Below are positions 1 to 43,281 of a DNA stretch of 64,000 bases, one piece after another. Origin of the DNA: Escherichia coli (GTDB lineage: Bacteria; Pseudomonadota; Gammaproteobacteria; Enterobacterales; Enterobacteriaceae); the NCBI RefSeq assembly GCF_016903815.1, contig NZ_CP069973.1; one strand, 5' to 3'. The first letter of the stretch is position 1, and every line of letters begins with the position of its first letter. The position numbers and the translations under genes were made by a program. The notes below the pieces were generated by a model. It was not told the origin of the DNA. It ran no database searches and saw only the letters and a program-made list of their open reading frames with translations.

Positions 1-1
1 C

Positions 2-937
<936 letters not shown>

Positions 938-957
938 TACCCAATTTTTCTGAATCT

Positions 958-984
958 AAAAAGCGCCTGCGGGCGCTTTTTTTG
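958..984 (+). terminator. rho-independent terminator after serS
   Basis: GC hairpin GCGCCTGCGGGCGC followed by a T-run (TTTTTTTG). Confidence 0.7.
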
Positions 985-1175
985 TCTCCCTTTGATACCG
1001 AACAATAATTACTCCTCACTTACACGTAATACTACTTTCGAGTGAAAATCTACCTATCTCTTTGATTTTCAAATTATTCGATGTATACAAGCCTATATAG
1101 CGACCTGCTATAGAAATAATTACACAATACGGTTTGTTACTGGAATCAATCGTGAGCAAGCTTGAGTGAGCCATT

Positions 1176-3620
1176 ATGAAAACGAAAATCCCTGATGCGG
1201 TATTGGCTGCTGAGGTGAGTCGCCGTGGTTTGGTAAAAACGACAGCGATCGGCGGCCTGGCAATGGCCAGCAGCGCGTTAACATTACCTTTTAGTCGGAT
1301 TGCGCACGCTGTCGATAGCGCCATTCCAACAAAATCAGACGAAAAGGTTATCTGGAGCGCCTGTACAGTTAACTGTGGTAGTCGCTGCCCGCTACGTATG
1401 CACGTCGTGGACGGTGAAATCAAATATGTTGAAACGGATAATACTGGCGATGACAACTATGACGGCCTGCACCAGGTGCGCGCCTGTCTGCGTGGTCGTT
1501 CCATGCGTCGCCGTGTCTACAATCCGGACCGCCTGAAATATCCGATGAAACGAGTCGGGGCGCGCGGTGAAGGCAAATTCGAGCGCATTAGCTGGGAAGA
1601 AGCCTACGACATCATCGCGACCAATATGCAGCGCCTGATCAAAGAGTACGGCAACGAATCCATCTATCTGAACTATGGCACCGGTACGCTGGGTGGCACC
1701 ATGACCCGCTCCTGGCCGCCGGGAAATACCCTGGTCGCTCGCCTGATGAACTGCTGCGGCGGTTATCTGAACCATTACGGTGACTACTCTTCCGCGCAAA
1801 TTGCGGAAGGTTTGAACTATACCTACGGCGGCTGGGCAGATGGTAACAGCCCGTCGGATATCGAAAACAGTAAACTGGTAGTGCTGTTTGGTAATAACCC
1901 TGGCGAAACGCGAATGAGTGGCGGTGGGGTGACTTACTATCTTGAACAGGCGCGTCAGAAATCTAATGCTCGCATGATCATCATCGATCCGCGCTATACC
2001 GACACCGGAGCCGGGCGCGAAGATGAGTGGATCCCTATTCGTCCGGGAACAGATGCCGCACTGGTTAACGGTCTGGCGTATGTCATGATCACCGAAAACC
2101 TGGTGGATCAGGCATTCCTCGATAAATATTGCGTTGGCTACGACGAGAAAACACTGCCTGCCAGTGCGCCGAAAAATGGTCACTATAAAGCTTATATTCT
2201 GGGTGAAGGGCCAGATGGCGTAGCTAAAACGCCGGAATGGGCCTCGCAAATCACCGGTGTTCCGGCAGACAAAATCATCAAATTGGCTCGTGAAATCGGT
2301 AGTACCAAACCGGCGTTTATCAGCCAGGGATGGGGCCCGCAGCGTCACGCTAACGGTGAAATCGCAACCCGTGCTATCTCGATGCTGGCGATTCTGACCG
2401 GTAACGTTGGTATTAATGGAGGGAACAGCGGCGCGCGTGAAGGTTCATACAGCTTACCGTTTGTGCGTATGCCGACCCTCGAAAACCCGATCCAGACCAG
2501 CATTTCTATGTTTATGTGGACCGATGCCATTGAACGTGGCCCGGAAATGACAGCGCTGCGTGATGGTGTGCGCGGGAAAGATAAGCTGGATGTGCCGATC
2601 AAAATGATCTGGAACTATGCCGGTAACTGCCTGATTAACCAGCATTCTGAAATCAACCGTACCCATGAAATCCTTCAGGATGATAAGAAGTGCGAGCTGA
2701 TTGTGGTTATCGACTGCCACATGACCTCATCGGCGAAATATGCTGACATCCTGCTGCCTGACTGCACCGCTTCCGAACAGATGGACTTTGCACTGGATGC
2801 ATCCTGCGGGAATATGTCTTACGTGATTTTCAACGATCAGGTGATTAAACCGCGCTTTGAATGTAAGACCATCTATGAAATGACCAGCGAACTGGCAAAA
2901 CGTCTTGGCGTTGAGCAACAGTTTACTGAAGGCCGTACCCAGGAAGAGTGGATGCGGCATCTGTATGCCCAGTCGCGGGAAGCGATTCCTGAACTGCCAA
3001 CGTTTGAAGAGTTCCGCAAGCAGGGGATCTTTAAAAAGCGCGACCCACAAGGGCATCACGTTGCTTATAAAGCCTTCCGTGAAGATCCGCAGGCAAATCC
3101 ACTGACCACGCCATCGGGTAAAATTGAGATTTATTCGCAGGCGCTGGCTGACATTGCCGCTACCTGGGAATTGCCAGAAGGCGATGTGATCGATCCACTG
3201 CCGATCTACACGCCGGGCTTTGAAAGTTATCAGGATCCGCTGAACAAACAGTATCCGCTGCAGCTTACGGGTTTCCACTATAAATCTCGCGTTCACTCAA
3301 CTTACGGCAACGTTGATGTGCTGAAAGCGGCTTGCCGTCAGGAAATGTGGATCAACCCGCTTGATGCCCAAAAACGCGGTATCAACAACGGCGATAAAGT
3401 CAGGATCTTTAACGATCGTGGTGAGGTTCATATTGAGGCGAAAGTGACGCCACGAATGATGCCGGGTGTGGTCGCACTGGGTGAAGGTGCCTGGTATGAC
3501 CCGGATGCAAAACGTGTCGATAAGGGAGGTTGTATCAACGTACTGACCACTCAACGTCCGTCTCCTCTCGCTAAGGGGAATCCGTCACATACAAACCTTG
3601 TTCAGGTTGAAAAGGTGTAA
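1176..3620 (+). CDS. dmsA: anaerobic DMSO reductase catalytic subunit A (molybdopterin oxidoreductase, Tat signal)
   Basis: 814 aa; N-terminal twin-arginine signal (SRRGLVKT), Cys cluster (CTVNCGSRC) typical of molybdopterin oxidoreductases; followed by dmsB and dmsC. Confidence 0.93.
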   Translation: MKTKIPDAVLAAEVSRRGLVKTTAIGGLAMASSALTLPFSRIAHAVDSAIPTKSDEKVIWSACTVNCGSRCPLRMHVVDGEIKYVETDNTGDDNYDGLHQVRACLRGRSMRRRVYNPDRLKYPMKRVGARGEGKFERISWEEAYDIIATNMQRLIKEYGNESIYLNYGTGTLGGTMTRSWPPGNTLVARLMNCCGGYLNHYGDYSSAQIAEGLNYTYGGWADGNSPSDIENSKLVVLFGNNPGETRMSGGGVTYYLEQARQKSNARMIIIDPRYTDTGAGREDEWIPIRPGTDAALVNGLAYVMITENLVDQAFLDKYCVGYDEKTLPASAPKNGHYKAYILGEGPDGVAKTPEWASQITGVPADKIIKLAREIGSTKPAFISQGWGPQRHANGEIATRAISMLAILTGNVGINGGNSGAREGSYSLPFVRMPTLENPIQTSISMFMWTDAIERGPEMTALRDGVRGKDKLDVPIKMIWNYAGNCLINQHSEINRTHEILQDDKKCELIVVIDCHMTSSAKYADILLPDCTASEQMDFALDASCGNMSYVIFNDQVIKPRFECKTIYEMTSELAKRLGVEQQFTEGRTQEEWMRHLYAQSREAIPELPTFEEFRKQGIFKKRDPQGHHVAYKAFREDPQANPLTTPSGKIEIYSQALADIAATWELPEGDVIDPLPIYTPGFESYQDPLNKQYPLQLTGFHYKSRVHSTYGNVDVLKAACRQEMWINPLDAQKRGINNGDKVRIFNDRGEVHIEAKVTPRMMPGVVALGEGAWYDPDAKRVDKGGCINVLTTQRPSPLAKGNPSHTNLVQVEKV

Positions 3621-3630
3621 GGAGTAACCG

Positions 3631-4248
3631 ATGACAACCCAGTATGGATTTTTTATTGATTCCAGCCGTTGCACCGGTTGCAAAACCTGCGAGCTGGCCT
3701 GTAAAGACTATAAAGATCTGACGCCGGAAGTCAGCTTCCGCCGCATTTATGAATATGCTGGTGGCGACTGGCAGGAAGATAACGGTGTCTGGCACCAGAA
3801 CGTGTTTGCCTACTATCTGTCGATTTCGTGCAACCACTGCGAAGATCCGGCTTGTACTAAAGTCTGCCCGAGCGGTGCGATGCATAAACGTGAAGATGGT
3901 TTTGTTGTGGTCGATGAAGATGTGTGCATTGGCTGCCGCTACTGCCATATGGCTTGCCCGTATGGCGCACCGCAATATAACGAAACGAAAGGCCATATGA
4001 CCAAATGCGATGGTTGTTATGACCGTGTTGCGGAGGGTAAAAAGCCGATCTGTGTTGAATCTTGTCCGCTGCGGGCGCTGGATTTCGGCCCTATCGACGA
4101 GCTGCGTAAAAAACATGGCGATCTGGCGGCCGTTGCGCCGTTGCCGCGAGCTCACTTTACCAAACCGAATATTGTGATCAAACCCAATGCCAACAGCCGC
4201 CCGACCGGGGATACCACTGGCTATCTGGCAAACCCGAAGGAGGTGTGA
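3631..4248 (+). CDS. dmsB: DMSO reductase iron-sulfur subunit B
   Basis: 205 aa; multiple 4Fe-4S ferredoxin Cys motifs (CTGCKTCELAC, CNHCEDPACTKVCP, CIGCRYCHMACP). Confidence 0.93.
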   Translation: MTTQYGFFIDSSRCTGCKTCELACKDYKDLTPEVSFRRIYEYAGGDWQEDNGVWHQNVFAYYLSISCNHCEDPACTKVCPSGAMHKREDGFVVVDEDVCIGCRYCHMACPYGAPQYNETKGHMTKCDGCYDRVAEGKKPICVESCPLRALDFGPIDELRKKHGDLAAVAPLPRAHFTKPNIVIKPNANSRPTGDTTGYLANPKEV

Positions 4249-4249
4249 G

Positions 4250-5113
4250 ATGGGAAGTGGATGGCATGAATGGCCGCTGATGATCTTCACGGTCTTCGGG
4301 CAATGTGTAGCGGGTGGTTTTATCGTTCTGGCTTTGGCGCTGCTCAAAGGCGACCTGCGAGCAGAAGCCCAGCAGCGTGTTATTGCCTGCATGTTTGGTT
4401 TATGGGTGCTGATGGGCATTGGCTTTATCGCCTCTATGCTTCATCTTGGTTCACCGATGCGCGCCTTTAACTCGCTCAACCGGGTAGGGGCTTCAGCACT
4501 CAGTAACGAAATCGCCAGCGGTTCGATCTTTTTTGCTGTTGGTGGCATCGGCTGGTTGCTGGCAATGCTGAAAAAGCTGTCACCGGCATTGCGTACGCTC
4601 TGGCTGATAGTGACGATGGTTCTTGGCGTCATCTTTGTCTGGATGATGGTGCGTGTGTATAACAGCATTGATACCGTTCCGACCTGGTACAGCATCTGGA
4701 CGCCGATGGGCTTCTTCCTGACGATGTTTATGGGCGGCCCGTTACTGGGTTACCTGTTGCTGAGTCTGGCTGGCGTCGATGGCTGGGCGATGCGTCTGCT
4801 GCCAGCCATTTCTGTACTGGCACTGGTAGTGAGTGGCGTGATGTCAGTGATGCAGGGCGCAGAGCTGGCGACTATTCATAGTTCTGTGCAGCAGGCCGCA
4901 GCGCTGGTGCCGGACTATGGTGCGCTGATGTCCTGGCGGATCGTGCTTTTGGCTGTTGCCCTGTGTTTGTGGATTGCACCACAGCTAAAAGGTTATCAGC
5001 CTGCGGTTCCGCTACTATCCGTCTCATTCATTCTGCTTCTGGCAGGAGAATTAATCGGCCGCGGCGTATTCTATGGTTTGCATATGACCGTGGGGATGGC
5101 CGTCGCAAGCTAA
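4250..5113 (+). CDS. dmsC: DMSO reductase membrane anchor subunit C
   Basis: Polytopic hydrophobic protein; start chosen at internal Met (MGSGWHEW...) to give 287 aa, the ORF track has a longer upstream start overlapping dmsB. Confidence 0.85.
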   Translation: MGSGWHEWPLMIFTVFGQCVAGGFIVLALALLKGDLRAEAQQRVIACMFGLWVLMGIGFIASMLHLGSPMRAFNSLNRVGASALSNEIASGSIFFAVGGIGWLLAMLKKLSPALRTLWLIVTMVLGVIFVWMMVRVYNSIDTVPTWYSIWTPMGFFLTMFMGGPLLGYLLLSLAGVDGWAMRLLPAISVLALVVSGVMSVMQGAELATIHSSVQQAAALVPDYGALMSWRIVLLAVALCLWIAPQLKGYQPAVPLLSVSFILLLAGELIGRGVFYGLHMTVGMAVAS

Positions 5114-5118
5114 TCAGT

Positions 5119-5152
5119 AACAACCGGGGTTTCGACCCCGGTTCTCTTTTAT
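5119..5152. terminator. bidirectional terminator between convergent dmsC and ycaC
   Basis: Hairpin AACCGGGGTTTCGACCCCGGTT with T-rich flank. Confidence 0.6.
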
Positions 5153-5775
5153 TTCTGCTTCGTTAATGTGTCATAACTGGTCATCAAATTACGATAATCA
5201 GGAATGTGGTTAGAGAACAACGTCGCCAGTCCTTCAATATCATTACGCCAGTCACGGTGCAGCTCGCAAGCCACGCCGAACCATGTCATCAATTGCGCAC
5301 CAGCTTGCGACATGCGATCCCACGCCGAATGCCGGGTAATTTCATTAAAGGTCCCTGATGCATCAGTCACGACAAATACATCAAATCCCTCTTCAATGGC
5401 TGAAAGCGCCGGGAATGCCACGCAAACTTCGGTTACCACACCGGCAATAATTAACTGTTTTTTACCTGTCGCTTTGACAGCTTTTACAAAATCTTCGTTA
5501 TCCCAGGCGTTAATATTTCCCGGGCGAGCAATGTAAGGTGCATCGGGGAACTGTGTTTTCAGTTCTGGAACTAATGGGCCGTTAGGACCGGTTTCAAAAC
5601 TGGTGGTAAGAATAGTAGGTAAGTTGAAATACTTAGCCAGGTCGCCCAGCGCCAGCACGTTATTTTTAAACTTATCGGGTTCGATATCCCGTACAAGGGA
5701 AAGTAAACCAGCCTGGTGATCAACAAGCAAAACGGCAGCATCATTTTTATCAAGACGAACATACGGTTTGGTCAT
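5149..5775 (-). CDS. ycaC: isochorismatase-family hydrolase
   Basis: 208 aa; isochorismatase-like fold signature (AVLLVDHQ..., catalytic Cys region GVVTEVCV); position after dmsC matches E. coli gene order. Confidence 0.85.
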   Translation of the reverse strand: MTKPYVRLDKNDAAVLLVDHQAGLLSLVRDIEPDKFKNNVLALGDLAKYFNLPTILTTSFETGPNGPLVPELKTQFPDAPYIARPGNINAWDNEDFVKAVKATGKKQLIIAGVVTEVCVAFPALSAIEEGFDVFVVTDASGTFNEITRHSAWDRMSQAGAQLMTWFGVACELHRDWRNDIEGLATLFSNHIPDYRNLMTSYDTLTKQK

Positions 5776-6089
5776 CCTCTTCTCCTTTCGAGAGTCAGTG
5801 GTACGTCTGAAATCGGTCAGACGCGATGCATTGCTCTGAAAGCATAGACGGGAAATATGAGTTTGCTGTGACCATGAAATTTTTCGACTGAACGAAGCGT
5901 ATGAAATTTGTATTAGATCAATAAAAACAATCAGATGAGATTAATCGTCTCTCCAGCATTAGCGTTATGAATGAGTAATATAAATCGATAATACCTCCGC
6001 TGCGATATGCGCGTATTTTCACCCATTGACAATGTTTTTGGCGGTGGCATGATGCGCATGAAATTTGAACTTCCTCACGGTTTTAATTC

Positions 6090-7238
6090 ATGTCCACGTA
6101 TACCCGGCCTGTCATGCTTTTGCTGTCTGGCCTGCTTTTGTTGACTCTGGCGATCGCAGTGTTAAATACACTCGTACCGCTTTGGCTCGCCCAGGAACAC
6201 ATGTCCACATGGCAGGTAGGCGTTGTCAGCTCATCCTATTTTACCGGCAACCTGGTCGGTACATTGCTGACAGGGTATGTCATTAAGCGCATTGGCTTTA
6301 ACCGCAGCTATTATCTGGCCTCCTTCATTTTTGCCGCTGGCTGTGCCGGCCTTGGTCTAATGATTGGATTCTGGAGCTGGTTGGCTTGGCGTTTTGTCGC
6401 CGGCGTCGGCTGTGCCATGATTTGGGTGGTTGTTGAGAGCGCGCTGATGTGCAGTGGGACGTCACGTAACCGTGGGCGTTTGCTTGCTGCGTATATGATG
6501 GTTTATTACGTGGGAACGTTTTTAGGCCAGTTACTGGTCAGCAAAGTTTCAACCGAGCTGATGTCCGTATTGCCGTGGGTTACAGGTTTGACGTTGGCAG
6601 GGATCTTACCGTTGTTGTTTACGCGTGTGCTGAATCAGCAGGCTGAAAACCATGATGCGACGTCAATTACGTCAATGCTAAAACTCCGTCAGGCGCGGCT
6701 TGGCGTGAATGGCTGCATTATCTCAGGAATCGTTCTGGGATCTCTATATGGCCTGATGCCGCTGTACCTCAATCACAAAGGGGTGAGCAATGCCAGCATT
6801 GGTTTCTGGATGGCGGTACTGGTCAGTGCGGGTATCCTTGGACAATGGCCGATTGGACGTCTGGCGGATAAGTTTGGTCGACTGCTGGTGTTGCGTGTTC
6901 AGGTCTTTGTCGTCATTCTCGGCAGTATCGCGATGCTTAGCCAGGCGGCGATGGCCCCAGCGTTATTCATCCTCGGTGCCGCTGGCTTTACGCTATATCC
7001 GGTGGCGATGGCATGGGCTTGCGAGAAAGTTGAACATCATCAACTGGTGGCGATGAACCAGGCCTTACTGTTGAGCTATACCGTGGGAAGTCTGCTTGGC
7101 CCGTCATTTACTGCCATGCTAATGCAGAATTTCTCCGATAATTTATTGTTTATCATGATCGCCAGCGTATCGTTTATCTATTTGCTGATGCTGCTTCGCA
7201 ACGCCGGTCATACGCCGAAACCCGTTGCTCACGTGTAA
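6090..7238 (+). CDS. ycaD: MFS-family transporter
   Basis: 382 aa, about 12 predicted TM helices; synteny. Confidence 0.85.
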
Positions 7239-7447
7239 ATGAATTCAAGCAGAGTGTGAACTTACTGTTTCACACTCTGCTTTTTTGTTTCTTCTATCTG
7301 ACTTGCTTTATTCCAAATTTTATTCGTTTAAAAATAAAATGTGCAGCAGATTATAATTTTGCATTTCGCTATTTCCGCACTTCTTATTTGCCGCGCATAA
7401 TCCCTCGTTTTACAGATGCCCCTTTAATTTTGGCGAAGGATTTGTCT

Positions 7448-8878
7448 ATGGCTGGGAATGTTCAGGAAAAACAGCTGCGATGGTACAACATTGCGCTGAT
7501 GTCTTTTATCACTGTCTGGGGTTTTGGCAACGTTGTTAATAACTACGCCAACCAGGGGCTGGTGGTTGTTTTTTCATGGGTGTTTATCTTTGCGCTCTAT
7601 TTCACACCTTATGCGCTAATTGTTGGTCAGTTAGGCTCGACCTTCAAAGATGGGAAGGGCGGGGTCAGTACCTGGATTAAACACACGATGGGACCCGGAC
7701 TGGCTTACCTCGCCGCGTGGACCTACTGGGTAGTGCATATTCCCTATCTGGCACAAAAACCCCAGGCAATACTGATTGCGCTCGGTTGGGCGATGAAAGG
7801 CGACGGTTCGTTAATCAAAGAATATTCAGTCGTAGCGTTACAGGGGTTAACGCTGGTGCTGTTTATCTTCTTTATGTGGGTTGCTTCACGCGGTATGAAA
7901 TCGCTGAAAATCGTCGGTTCTGTGGCAGGGATTGCGATGTTTGTTATGTCGCTCCTGTATGTGGCGATGGCGGTAACCGCGCCTGCAATTACTGAAGTGC
8001 ATATTGCGACCACAAACATTACCTGGGAAACGTTCATTCCTCATATCGACTTTACCTACATTACCACTATTTCAATGCTGGTTTTCGCGGTTGGCGGAGC
8101 AGAGAAGATTTCTCCTTACGTTAATCAAACGCGCAACCCAGGAAAAGAATTTCCAAAAGGGATGTTATGCCTGGCGGTGATGGTTGCGGTTTGTGCCATT
8201 CTGGGCTCACTGGCGATGGGGATGATGTTTGACTCGCGTAATATCCCGGATGACTTAATGACTAACGGTCAGTATTACGCCTTTCAGAAGCTGGGCGAGT
8301 ATTACAACATGGGTAATACTTTAATGGTGATTTATGCCATTGCGAATACCCTGGGACAAGTAGCTGCGCTGGTATTCTCGATTGATGCGCCGCTTAAAGT
8401 GTTATTAGGCGATGCTGACAGCAAATATATTCCAGCCAGTTTATGTCGTACCAACGCTTCTGGTACGCCCGTTAATGGCTATTTTCTGACCCTGGTGCTG
8501 GTGGCGATTCTGATAATGCTACCGACTCTCGGCATTGGTGATATGAACAATCTCTATAAATGGCTGTTGAACCTTAATTCGGTAGTGATGCCGCTGCGTT
8601 ATTTATGGGTATTTGTTGCATTTATTGCAGTCGTTCGCCTGGCGCAGAAATATAAACCAGAATATGTCTTTATTCGTAATAAGCCGCTGGCAATGACCGT
8701 CGGAATTTGGTGTTTTGCCTTTACCGCTTTTGCCTGCCTGACTGGTATTTTCCCGAAAATGGAAGCCTTCACCGCAGAGTGGACATTCCAGTTGGCGCTG
8801 AATGTTGCAACGCCGTTTGTGCTGGTAGGATTAGGGCTGATATTCCCGCTGCTGGCGCGTAAAGCGAATGGTAAATAA
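7448..8878 (+). CDS. ycaM: APC-family amino-acid transporter (putative)
   Basis: Polytopic membrane protein; start moved to internal Met (MAGNVQEKQ...) giving 476 aa; the ORF track's 64-residue N-extension is AT-rich leader. Confidence 0.78.
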   Translation: MAGNVQEKQLRWYNIALMSFITVWGFGNVVNNYANQGLVVVFSWVFIFALYFTPYALIVGQLGSTFKDGKGGVSTWIKHTMGPGLAYLAAWTYWVVHIPYLAQKPQAILIALGWAMKGDGSLIKEYSVVALQGLTLVLFIFFMWVASRGMKSLKIVGSVAGIAMFVMSLLYVAMAVTAPAITEVHIATTNITWETFIPHIDFTYITTISMLVFAVGGAEKISPYVNQTRNPGKEFPKGMLCLAVMVAVCAILGSLAMGMMFDSRNIPDDLMTNGQYYAFQKLGEYYNMGNTLMVIYAIANTLGQVAALVFSIDAPLKVLLGDADSKYIPASLCRTNASGTPVNGYFLTLVLVAILIMLPTLGIGDMNNLYKWLLNLNSVVMPLRYLWVFVAFIAVVRLAQKYKPEYVFIRNKPLAMTVGIWCFAFTAFACLTGIFPKMEAFTAEWTFQLALNVATPFVLVGLGLIFPLLARKANGK

Positions 8879-9044
8879 TTATTGTGGTCGGTGACGCTGA
8901 CTCTGGCAGATCTGACCCGTTTTTACATAATCGAGAAATGCGCGTAAGCCGCAGGACATATACTGGCGGTTTGGGTAATACATTTGGAAGCTGTGCTGTA
9001 AGGGCGTTAGAAATAGAGCTCTGAATTATTTATGCAGAGCGGAA

Positions 9045-9078
9045 TAAAAAAGCGGCAACTCAAAAAAGTTGCCGCTTT
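9045..9078. terminator. bidirectional terminator between ycaM and pflA
   Basis: Hairpin GCGGCAAC...GTTGCCGC flanked by A-run and T-run. Confidence 0.6.
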
Positions 9079-9087
9079 ACGGGGAAA

Positions 9088-9885
9088 TTAGAACATTACC
9101 TTATGACCGTACTGCTCAAGAATGCCTTTCACGCGTTCCATGGTCTCTTTCTTCGGTGGTTTAACACCATCAAGTTTGTATTCTTCACCCATCGCCACCC
9201 ATTTGTGTTTGCCAAGTTCGTGGTAGGGGAGAAGCTCGATTTTCTCAACGTTGCCCATATCACGGGTAAATTCACCGAGGCGATGCGCTGAATCGTCATC
9301 GTCAGACCAGCCTGGGACAACAACGTAGCGGATCCACACCTTCACATTTTTGTTCGCCAGATATTTGGCGAACTCCAGCGTGCGGTGGTTTGAAACTCCA
9401 ACCAGATTTTGGTGGATCTCGTCGTTCATCTGTTTGAGATCGAGCATTACCAGGTCGGTTACTTCCAGCAGTTCATCAATCACCGGATCGTAACGACGAA
9501 CAAAACCGTTGGTGTCCAGACAGGTATGAATGCCTTCTTTTTTGCAGGCGCGGAACCAGTCACGAACAAACTCAGCTTGCAGGATTGCTTCACCGCCGGA
9601 TGCGGTAACGCCGCCGCCGGAAGCGTTCATAAAGTGGCGATAGGTCACCACCTCTTTCATTAAATCTTCAACGGTAACTTCTTTACCGCCATGCGTGTCC
9701 CAGGTGTCGCGGTTATGACAATACAGGCAGCGCATCAGGCAGCCCTGGAAAAAGGTGATAAAGCGAATACCCGGGCCGTCTACGGTTCCACAGGATTCAA
9801 AGGAGTGAATGCGACCAATAACTGACTTGGTAGCCCCCGCCGCAGCGGTATTTTCTGTTGTATTACAATTAGTTAAATTACTCAT
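9088..9885 (-). CDS. pflA: pyruvate formate-lyase activating enzyme (radical SAM); 5' end rebuilt by prophage-derived sequence
   Basis: Radical-SAM CxxxCxxC motif (CLMRCLYC) and body of PflA from ...[22 protein letters not shown]; the first 20 codons ([20 protein letters not shown]) lie in prophage-side sequence upstream of the att core. Confidence 0.85.
9814..9826. repeat. attL core (13-bp direct repeat ACCAATAACTGAC)
   Basis: Identical 13-mer at 43269-43281 at the opposite prophage end; lies within pflA codons 2-5 (native numbering). Confidence 0.6.
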
Positions 9886-9916
9886 ATCGCTTCAATTGGC
9901 TCTAGTTAACTCTGGT

Positions 9917-10912
9917 TTATGGACGCATTATGGACATTCCTGACACCGGGTTAAGAGTCACAGCATCTTGTAAGAAATCCGGTGCAAAGTGTGCGTAGGT
10001 CATAGTTTGCTGAATGTTAGAATGACCCAGGATGCGCTGCAATGTGATTATGTTACCTCCATTCATTATAAAATGTGTGGCAAATGTATGCCTCAAAACA
10101 TGCACTGCCTGTCCGTCAGGTAAATCGGGTTTTACTTCCCTGAGAGCGTTGCGCACTTTGTAGTAACTGGCATTAAAAAGCCTGCCTGAATTTTTGGTCT
10201 TGATCCGTTTAATCAGGTCCTGCGAAACGGGAATTGTCCTGCGCTTTCCGTTTTTAGTTTTCATAAACGTAACCATCTGGTTAATGATGTGTTCAGCTTT
10301 CAAATTAGACACTTCACTCCAGCGTCCACCAGTAGAAAGGCAGACCAGAGTTGCATTTAACTCATCACCATCAAGCATGGATAACAGCCGCGTAATCTCT
10401 TCACTGGACAAAAAAGCCATTTCCGTAACAGCTTCACGTAACCGCTTAACCTCACGGAACGGGTTGTGAGAGTGATATTCACCGGCGTCAATTAACTTGG
10501 TGAACATCCCGCTCATTATTGCCAGATGCCGATTTACGCTGGCTGGTTTTAGGCCATCGTTCATCATTACAACGCGATAATCAGTTATCGTTTTCTTTGT
10601 TAGCTGGTCCGCCCTGGACACTCCCATCTCGGCAAATTTGGCGATTATTGTCGTCAAACGCCCTCGTTCAATATCTCCACGCTCATGTGATTTTCCGTGA
10701 TATATCCACCATCTGCCTAACAACTCTGTAAGAGTTCGGCGGTCGGCCGGCTTCTCCAACCACTCTTTGTTGTGGTAGTTAACCAGGACATGACGTTCGA
10801 ATGCTTGAGCTTCACCTTTAGTTTTAAATTTCCGCCTGATACGTTTTCCATCTGCACCCTGCGGTCTGACGTCCACTTCATAACGACCATCATCGAGCTT
10901 TTTAATAGACAT
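9917..10912 (-). CDS. int: phage tyrosine integrase
   Basis: 331 aa; C-terminal catalytic region with HVLRHTFAT...GHSNIQQTMTYAHF (R-H-R-Y type); adjacent to att core. Confidence 0.9.
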   Translation of the reverse strand: MSIKKLDDGRYEVDVRPQGADGKRIRRKFKTKGEAQAFERHVLVNYHNKEWLEKPADRRTLTELLGRWWIYHGKSHERGDIERGRLTTIIAKFAEMGVSRADQLTKKTITDYRVVMMNDGLKPASVNRHLAIMSGMFTKLIDAGEYHSHNPFREVKRLREAVTEMAFLSSEEITRLLSMLDGDELNATLVCLSTGGRWSEVSNLKAEHIINQMVTFMKTKNGKRRTIPVSQDLIKRIKTKNSGRLFNASYYKVRNALREVKPDLPDGQAVHVLRHTFATHFIMNGGNIITLQRILGHSNIQQTMTYAHFAPDFLQDAVTLNPVSGMSIMRP

Positions 10913-11005
10913 AAAGCCCTCCGATGACGCTGTTTACTTCTACTACTTGAAAATTAATGCAATTTTCTTTCGTACATTTACTGCACACATATGCTGAATA
11001 AATCG

Positions 11006-11317
11006 TCAGCCAGTCTTTTGGTCTGAGTGGTGCAAGGTTGTTGAGTCTTGCCCAATGTGCGCGAGCGCCGGGGCTATTTGTCCGCCAGCGGGATCAGTTT
11101 CATCAAACATGAACCAGTCACGGTACTTGCGAAATCTTTCTGGCTTGAAAAATTTCATACCTGCGTCAAAAGACATCTTTACTTTTCCCTGCTCATATCC
11201 AGCATAGGTGTTGTAGTTAATTCCAGTTAATTCAGCAACTTGCTTCCTTGTCATTCTTTCTGATTCCCGAATAAGTGCGAGTTTCTCTGCTTGAGATGTG
11301 ATTTGTGTATTTGACAT
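11006..11317 (-). CDS. phage immunity repressor (P2 C-like, HTH)
   Basis: Small HTH protein (MTRKQVAELTGINYNTYAGYEQG) divergent from the early operon, next to int as in P2; start codon uncertain (11317 or 11365). Confidence 0.6.
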   Translation of the reverse strand: MSNTQITSQAEKLALIRESERMTRKQVAELTGINYNTYAGYEQGKVKMSFDAGMKFFKPERFRKYRDWFMFDETDPAGGQIAPALAHIGQDSTTLHHSDQKTG

Positions 11318-35038: not shown

Positions 35039-36265
35039 ATGTTACAGTTCAGCTTTGTATCAAATGACGTTGTTATGACTTACGACGGTGACAGCGGAGA
35101 ACAAATAATTTGGGTTTGGGAGAGTTTAAATAAATTTCAAACAGTATGCATTTCACGCATTTTTAACTTTCAACTCCAGGACTTGAGAAACCCACCGTCA
35201 ACCGTTCAGGATTTTAATGATTATGAATATTCCTTTAATTTTGGCACGCTTAATAATGAATACATAACAGTTCCGGGACGGATTCTAAGCATTAATCGAG
35301 ATGTCCTTATACATAAGTCCATCAAGCTTGAAAGGAAAGTATTTGCGTCAGAACGCAACGTCTCCATTTTTGGTCGGCTTTCAAAACTACTCGATCACAC
35401 TAATCCCATCATCATCGGAGGAGATAAGTCGGAAGCTATACCAAAAAGCGTATTCCAGGAGTTGCAAAGTAAATTCCCCAACACAGGGGAACTGGATCGC
35501 TATGCTAATGCAAGGGTTCACGCTATTCTCGCAGGTTATCTTGATGGTATGAAAGATGCTCGCGAACGGTATGAACATTACCTAAACAGAAAAACAGTGA
35601 TCAGAAAAACCGACAAACTGGATTTAGAAGTTTTAAATAAGCTCGAAATTGAGAAATATACACTCATAAGAGACATTATCCAGGATGCGTTGAATAACAA
35701 AACTAACTTGTCTGAAGATGACTGGCAGAGCCTGATGATACCCTTCATCACATTACTTTTTCCAAAATATATCAAGGTCCTCGAGAAGGTTAAAATTTTC
35801 GACTATTACTCTAATCCTTCGGCTAAAACAAATCGGTTTATAGACATTGCACTGGTGGATGCAAACGGCAACCTTGATATCATCGAAGTCAAAAAGCCGT
35901 TTGATGATAAGATCCTTCGCAAGACGCCCTATCGCGACAACTATATTCCTACATCAGAACTTAGCGGCGGTATTATGCAGGCTGAAAAGTATATTTTTCA
36001 TTTATCTAAATGGGGTGTTAAGGGTGAAAAAGAGCTTACGAATGCCTACAAGAATTCTCTGCCAGCGGGAATGTGTATTCGTATATCTAACCCAAAAGCC
36101 ATCATCATTGTCGGGCGCGATCAGATAGCGAACGGTAACATGACCGACGGTCAGTTGCTTGATTTTGAGATAATCAAACGTAAGTACGCCAACATGATAG
36201 ACATATTGACGTACGACGACCTGTTGCGTCGACTTAATAATACGATTGAAGCATTGAAAGGTTGA
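35039..36265 (+). CDS. cargo protein with C-terminal PD-(D/E)xK nuclease-like motif (possibly Shedu-like), function unknown
   Basis: 408 aa, AT-rich; motif RFIDIALVDANGNLDIIEVKKP (D...D...E-x-K) near residue 275-295; located at the P2 Z/fun variable position between G and FI. Confidence 0.5.
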   Translation: MLQFSFVSNDVVMTYDGDSGEQIIWVWESLNKFQTVCISRIFNFQLQDLRNPPSTVQDFNDYEYSFNFGTLNNEYITVPGRILSINRDVLIHKSIKLERKVFASERNVSIFGRLSKLLDHTNPIIIGGDKSEAIPKSVFQELQSKFPNTGELDRYANARVHAILAGYLDGMKDARERYEHYLNRKTVIRKTDKLDLEVLNKLEIEKYTLIRDIIQDALNNKTNLSEDDWQSLMIPFITLLFPKYIKVLEKVKIFDYYSNPSAKTNRFIDIALVDANGNLDIIEVKKPFDDKILRKTPYRDNYIPTSELSGGIMQAEKYIFHLSKWGVKGEKELTNAYKNSLPAGMCIRISNPKAIIIVGRDQIANGNMTDGQLLDFEIIKRKYANMIDILTYDDLLRRLNNTIEALKG

Positions 36266-43268: not shown

Positions 43269-43281
43269 ACCAATAACTGAC
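43269..43281. repeat. attR core (13-bp direct repeat ACCAATAACTGAC)
   Basis: Identical to 9814-9826; followed by the displaced native pflA ATG (minus strand, 43281-43283) and promoter region. Confidence 0.6.

Follow-up and report, generated by a model that had tools for sequence, protein, structure and literature searches.

We found that the short spacer between ycaM and pflA in the window (the whole 64,000-nt stretch of Escherichia coli contig NZ_CP069973.1 analysed here) is best read as the scar of a deletion, in which an ancestor with a K-12-like gene order would have lost ycaN and ycaK in a single event of about 1.5 kb; we put the probability of this reading at roughly 0.9. The breakpoints of the event, the remnants left behind, the lack of mobile-element signatures and the frequency of the junction in the population were all established here. 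Gene order across the window is dmsABC-ycaC-ycaD-ycaM, followed by pflA, a prophage, and pflB-focA-ycaO-ycaP-serC and onward. The ORF ends set the gap between ycaM and pflA at 209 bp (8879-9087), from the TAA stop codon of ycaM at 8876-8878 to the stop codon of pflA on the minus strand at 9088-9090, which bears out a preliminary description of the sequence that had placed the two genes about 210 bp apart. The junction and its flanks are made up as follows:

7448-8878, plus strand: ycaM, APC-family permease gene, intact, 476 aa, identified by tblastn, Pfam and K-12 collinearity
8879-8991, minus strand: 3' remnant of the LysR-type regulator gene ycaN, its last 37 codons and stop, a pseudogene fragment
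8992-9031, no strand assigned: 40-bp junction filler, a diverged remnant of the ycaK tail (last ~4 ycaK codons, stop and downstream spacer)
9032-9087, minus strand: pflA 3' flank with an intrinsic terminator hairpin at 9049-9078; K-12 collinearity resumes at 9032
9088-9885, minus strand: pflA, pyruvate formate-lyase activating enzyme gene; homologous to K-12 over 9088-9825, with prophage sequence in place of the original 5' end

The same description had stated that ycaN, encoding a LysR-type regulator, and ycaK lie between ycaM and pflA in K-12, and the gene order of MG1655 (b0899-b0902) confirms this:

947229-948659, strand not given: ycaM
948660-949568, minus strand: ycaN, LysR-type, 909 bp, 302 aa
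949668-950258, plus strand: ycaK, flavodoxin-like, 591 bp, 196 aa
950340-951080, minus strand: pflA

The two genomes have in common collinear flanks with about 98% identity, a convergent ycaM-pflA pair and the pflA terminator hairpin. In K-12, however, ycaM does not adjoin pflA: 1,680 bp holding intact ycaN and ycaK separate them, whereas the 209 bp of the window hold remnants only. YcaM is 99.8% identical to its K-12 counterpart over residues 1-476 (tblastn, 7448-8875) and matches the Pfam families AA_permease_2 and AA_permease, and residues 2-246 of PflA, which matches Radical_SAM and Fer4_12, are 100% identical to K-12 (tblastn, 9825-9091). Alignment by blastn paired window positions 217-8991 with positions 1-8773 of the K-12 locus (L001) at 98.2% identity, and 9032-9826 with 10285-11079 at 98.1% identity. 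K-12 locus positions 8774-10284 (1,511 bp) are thus replaced by 40 bp at 8992-9031, and the window does depart from K-12 at this junction, as had been proposed.

Both missing genes left traces. The ycaN remnant comprises the last 113 bp of the gene at 96.5% nucleotide identity to K-12 and reads in frame as SFQMYYPNRQYMSCGLRAFLDYVKTGQICQSQRHRPQ followed by the stop codon, corresponding to YcaN residues 266-302 with two residues different from K-12 (~97% protein identity); a tblastn search with the K-12 protein matched residues 267-302 only, at 8989-8882. In K-12 YcaN, Pfam places HTH_1 at residues 7-63 and LysR_substrate at residues 91-290 of 302. The HTH_1 domain is therefore missing from the window, as are a promoter and start for the remnant, and just the last ~25 residues of the LysR_substrate effector domain are left. 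Because LysR_substrate extends to residue 290 in K-12, the fragment is genuine domain-coding sequence and not spacer that reads through by chance. RefSeq marks the fragment as "incomplete; missing N-terminus" in strain 7/2 (NZ_CP023820), to which the window is 100% identical in the region tested, and elsewhere names it a partial "hypothetical protein" or "LysR family transcriptional regulator."

The ycaK trace is fainter. The filler at 8992-9031 gave no blastn alignment to K-12, and when it was compared directly with the K-12 ycaK tail the identity was weak, at 60% (21/35 positions). Identity to the matching Escherichia albertii sequence is 78%, and a multiple alignment tied it to the K-12 ycaK stop region through intermediates in two further Escherichia spp. 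(L005 and L006; GATGCACTATAAGATGCGTTAAAA). Some 12-15 nt of diverged stop-region sequence is all that remains of ycaK, and tblastn found no YcaK or Flavodoxin_2 ORF at E ≤ 1e-3 anywhere in the 64-kb window. The earlier statement that ycaN and ycaK are absent thus holds for ycaK, which has no match, and for ycaN as an intact gene, but the final 113 bp of ycaN survive. Since the ycaN tail and the ycaK stop remnant were both kept, the event behind the window's arrangement was a loss and not a gain in K-12.

We suggest that, in an ancestor ordered ycaM-ycaN-ycaK-pflA as in K-12, a single deletion of about 1.5 kb would have extended from near ycaN codon 265 into the final codons of ycaK. On the ycaN side, such a deletion would have taken the promoter, the HTH domain and the greater part of the effector domain; it would also have taken the divergent control region between ycaN and ycaK and essentially all of ycaK. 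What remained would be the 113-bp ycaN tail, a decayed ycaK tail of about 40 bp and the older pflA terminator, the two tails presumably having no gene function of their own. No IS ends, att core or target-site duplication were detected around 8991-9032, and a repeat search of the region returned the terminator hairpin and short imperfect matches. A short imperfect match between ATCTGGAAGC in ycaN and ATATGGTAGA in ycaK may have served illegitimate recombination, the likely mechanism, though this is conjecture.

The gap contains one strong hairpin, with 12-bp arms at 9049-9060 and 9067-9078 that are 100% complementary. A terminator scan called it on the minus (pflA) strand only, with 13 pairs (6 GC) and a TTTATT tail; the pflA-strand tail after the stem is UUUUUUAUU (U6AUU). 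With a GC-rich stem-loop followed by a U-tract, it is a predicted Rho-independent terminator for pflA. K-12 carries the same pflA terminator between ycaK and pflA, so the hairpin was not made by the junction, and it is kept in all Escherichia loci examined. The preliminary description had called it bidirectional, which stands as far as folding goes, with stable structures on both the minus strand (-20.3 kcal/mol, z -5.9) and the plus strand (-19.0 kcal/mol, z -4.6), but the U-tract and the scan call are confined to the pflA strand, the plus-strand (ycaM) tail being UUUAC. The sequence therefore supports action in both directions only in part, as a plausible possibility. As the sole strong hairpin left between the convergent genes, the pflA terminator may also terminate transcription from ycaM, with lower efficiency. 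The ycaM-ycaN pair has been listed among convergent overlapping transcription pairs (PMC12288877), and in the window ycaM transcripts would no longer overlap ycaN and would head for the terminator of pflA.

We counted the alleles at this locus over 5,426 complete E. coli genomes, using for the junction a 74-bp probe (8975-9048) that was scored when at least 80% of it was matched:

ycaN-ycaK segment present: 3,341 genomes, including K-12 and 55989
ycaM-(ycaN')-pflA junction as in the window: 1,023 genomes at 94.6-100% identity, including O157:H7 EDL933 and O55:H7 RM12579
ycaD-pflA, with ycaM lost too: 1,047 genomes, including CFT073 and FEX669

The window junction is thus present in ~19% of complete E. 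coli genomes and the ycaN-ycaK segment in ~62%, which makes the difference from K-12 a widespread polymorphism within the species and not a peculiarity of this strain. The three classes total 5,411 of the 5,426 genomes and are essentially mutually exclusive, so ycaN and ycaK are unlikely to have been merely relocated in the junction-type strains. The phylogroups read were A/B1 (K-12, 55989), E (O157:H7, O55:H7) and B2 (CFT073); among phylogroup D and F references, IAI39 and SMS-3-5 are rearranged, and the locus was not at the coordinates guessed for it. O157:H7 EDL933, O55:H7 RM12579 and about 1,000 others have the same deletion junction as the window with nothing essential different, and within E. 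coli the filler is confined to the 1,023 junction-type genomes. The B2-type ycaD-pflA strains CFT073 and FEX669 likewise lost ycaN and ycaK at this locus and kept the pflA terminator, but their deletion is larger, taking ycaM and joining the ycaD terminator directly to that of pflA (L003 7935-8050; CFT073, L045, 25055-27040).

Loci from other Escherichia indicate that the two genes were lost more than once. The E. albertii type strain NBRC 107761 (L007) has the same breakpoints as the window, although its copy of the junction is more decayed, with 78% identity and indels. A different junction occurs in Escherichia sp. L004, which keeps about 32 bp more of ycaN than the window and no ycaK codons, and a third form, in which a little less of ycaN and an evident ycaK tail remain, occurs in L005 and L006. 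All Escherichia loci without ycaN-ycaK keep truncated gene ends, and the truncation points vary. Because the junctions of the window and L004 cannot be derived from each other, at least two independent deletions occurred, and ycaN-ycaK was probably lost three or four times in Escherichia, counting the junction of the window and E. albertii, that of L004, possibly that of L005 and L006, and the larger B2 deletion. The window's deletion allele is old. About 19% of complete E. coli genomes have it, and so does the type strain of E. albertii. That E. albertii and part of E. coli have a junction in common, when the intact genes persist in other E. coli, requires either a long-lived polymorphism or transfer of the allele by recombination.

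The direction of change could be read the other way, with the window preserving the ancestral order and K-12-type strains having gained ycaN-ycaK by insertion, so that nothing was lost here. Outgroup gene order taken alone would suggest this: in the genomes recovered from Citrobacter, Kluyvera, Yokenella, Pluralibacter and Salmonella arizonae/diarizonae, none had ycaN-ycaK beside ycaM, and the gap from ycaM to pflA is 50-150 bp or is filled with unrelated cargo. Both genes also have lower GC and GC3 than their neighbours (GC3 of 0.44 for ycaN and 0.41 for ycaK, versus 0.58 for pflA and pflB), and the cassette appears to be a low-GC addition specific to Escherichia. The window, however, keeps 113 bp that encode a genuine LysR substrate-binding C-terminus in frame as well as the ycaK stop-region remnant, and other Escherichia truncate the same two genes at different points. 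Insertion cannot leave differently truncated gene ends in "empty" sites, which effectively refutes an ancestral order in the window, and we regard it as very improbable. An insertion of ycaN-ycaK probably took place before that, in an ancestor of Escherichia, and acquisition there followed by repeated loss is the most economical history. The locus thus offers a worked example of gene remnants fixing the direction of an indel where outgroup order alone would mislead.

The spacer might also have been kept for a function, either as a small ORF within the ycaN tail (34 codons if started at Met-4, for instance) or as an RNA with a regulatory or antisense effect on ycaM or pflA. The frame of the ycaN tail is indeed still open, with two amino acid changes relative to K-12. 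An Rfam scan of the whole window, however, found nothing in the spacer, folding outside the terminator was no better than that of shuffled sequences (z -1.2 and +0.7), and the single promoter-like match is at chance level (one found versus 0.8 expected). E. albertii and other Escherichia are 73-78% identical here with frame-breaking indels, as a decaying pseudogene would show, and together these results make a functional spacer highly improbable. Least credible of all is that the deletion was a by-product of imperfect excision or integration of the neighbouring P2-like prophage or of another mobile element: a 33-kb prophage does lie 740 bp away, at the far end of pflA, and in the E. albertii type strain the junction likewise occurs together with this prophage, but the att core is at the pflA start (9814-9826) with pflA intact between prophage and scar, nothing resembling an att site or an IS element lies at 8991-9032, where the filler is homologous to native Escherichia spacer, and the junction occurs in 1,023 genomes versus 404 for the prophage junction, so that most carriers cannot have the prophage (at least ~600 are without it, by the counts alone). 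We rejected a prophage origin of the deletion on these genome counts and the geometry of the locus.

If ycaN and ycaK were deleted as proposed, junction strains would have neither the regulator YcaN nor the flavodoxin-like oxidoreductase YcaK, and YcaN-dependent regulation would be lost. Deletion of ycaN in K-12 has been reported to alter the expression of ycaC, ycaD and focA and to give a formate-utilisation phenotype (PMC9068703). With ycaN-ycaK in ~62% of genomes, conclusions about YcaN regulation drawn from K-12 are not transferable to the other ~38%, which include O157:H7 and the B2-type uropathogen CFT073, and both genes are confirmed as accessory and not core E. coli genes. The losses sit in lineages that include these two strains. 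If loss was selected, removal of YcaN might retune formate and pyruvate-formate-lyase physiology in those lineages, though we consider selection, as opposed to neutral loss, rather unlikely. The junction is an ordinary accessory-gene polymorphism that is already known, as a RefSeq-annotated pseudogene fragment in more than 1,000 public genomes.

We also characterized the prophage itself, a Peduovirus (P2-like) element of ~33 kb at ~9827-43268 that is integrated exactly at the pflA start codon and matches phage S164 at 99.7% identity across int-C-cox-B. A 13-bp att core, ACCAATAACTGAC, is present at 9814-9826 and 43269-43281. Integration changed the native pflA ATG to AAG, and the ORF stays open through 19 codons of phage origin that begin with a new ATG, at 9885; the RefSeq annotation of strain 7/2 gives PflA as a 265-aa product. 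The native pflA promoter now lies 33 kb away, at attR. The integrase gene (9917-10912, minus strand) ends 31 bp upstream of the new pflA ATG, and no terminator-like site was found between its stop codon and that ATG, so pflA may share the transcript of the prophage C-int lysogenic operon. Of the 5,426 complete E. coli genomes, 404 have the same attL junction, as does the type strain of E. albertii (L007 9340-10465), whose integrase is 100% identical. Literature searching turned up no account of this integration site. PADLOC and Pfam matches point to defence cargo in the prophage: a type VI retron, with HTH_VI matched at 16418-16750 and RT_VI at 16689-17666; a gene with a PDC-S15/FRG domain on the minus strand at 17775-19139; and Shedu SduA at 35039-36265.

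The convergent ycaM-pflA junction looks like a recurrent spot for insertion and deletion. Clusters of ~5 kb occupy the site in Citrobacter werkmanii, Citrobacter sp. Cu233 and two Kluyvera species (L009 8420-14206, L011 8411-13499, L031 8399-13219 and L040 8402-13234), and their ORFs, judged by eye, resemble an operon for sugar transport and metabolism that includes a regulator of its own. Several Citrobacter (L014, L019 and L032, ~8420-9360) have an ORF of ~263 aa at the site with an N-terminus that resembles a signal peptide by eye only. E. coli strain E69 (L021, CP089930.1, 8429-15428) is without pflA within 7 kb downstream of ycaM and has three large ORFs there, of 782, 446 and 704 aa.

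YcaM homologues in Clostridium, Pelosinus, Anaerospora and other Sporomusaceae (L033-L039) were 62-66% identical, and enterobacterial copies were at least 82% identical, in a pattern-based, non-exhaustive search; the permease gene may have been transferred between phyla. A low-coverage 396-bp contig of the myxobacterium Corallococcus aberystwythensis (NZ_RAWK01000613.1, L044; coverage 0.67) is 99% identical to E. coli ycaM and is probably contamination of that assembly. RefSeq calls CFT073 pflB (L045 27232-29515) a frameshifted pseudogene, and the frameshift may be a sequencing error in an old assembly. The sole Rfam match in the window was the known sRNA family STnc130 (RF02084, 140 bits), at 951-1085 on the minus strand, upstream of dmsA.
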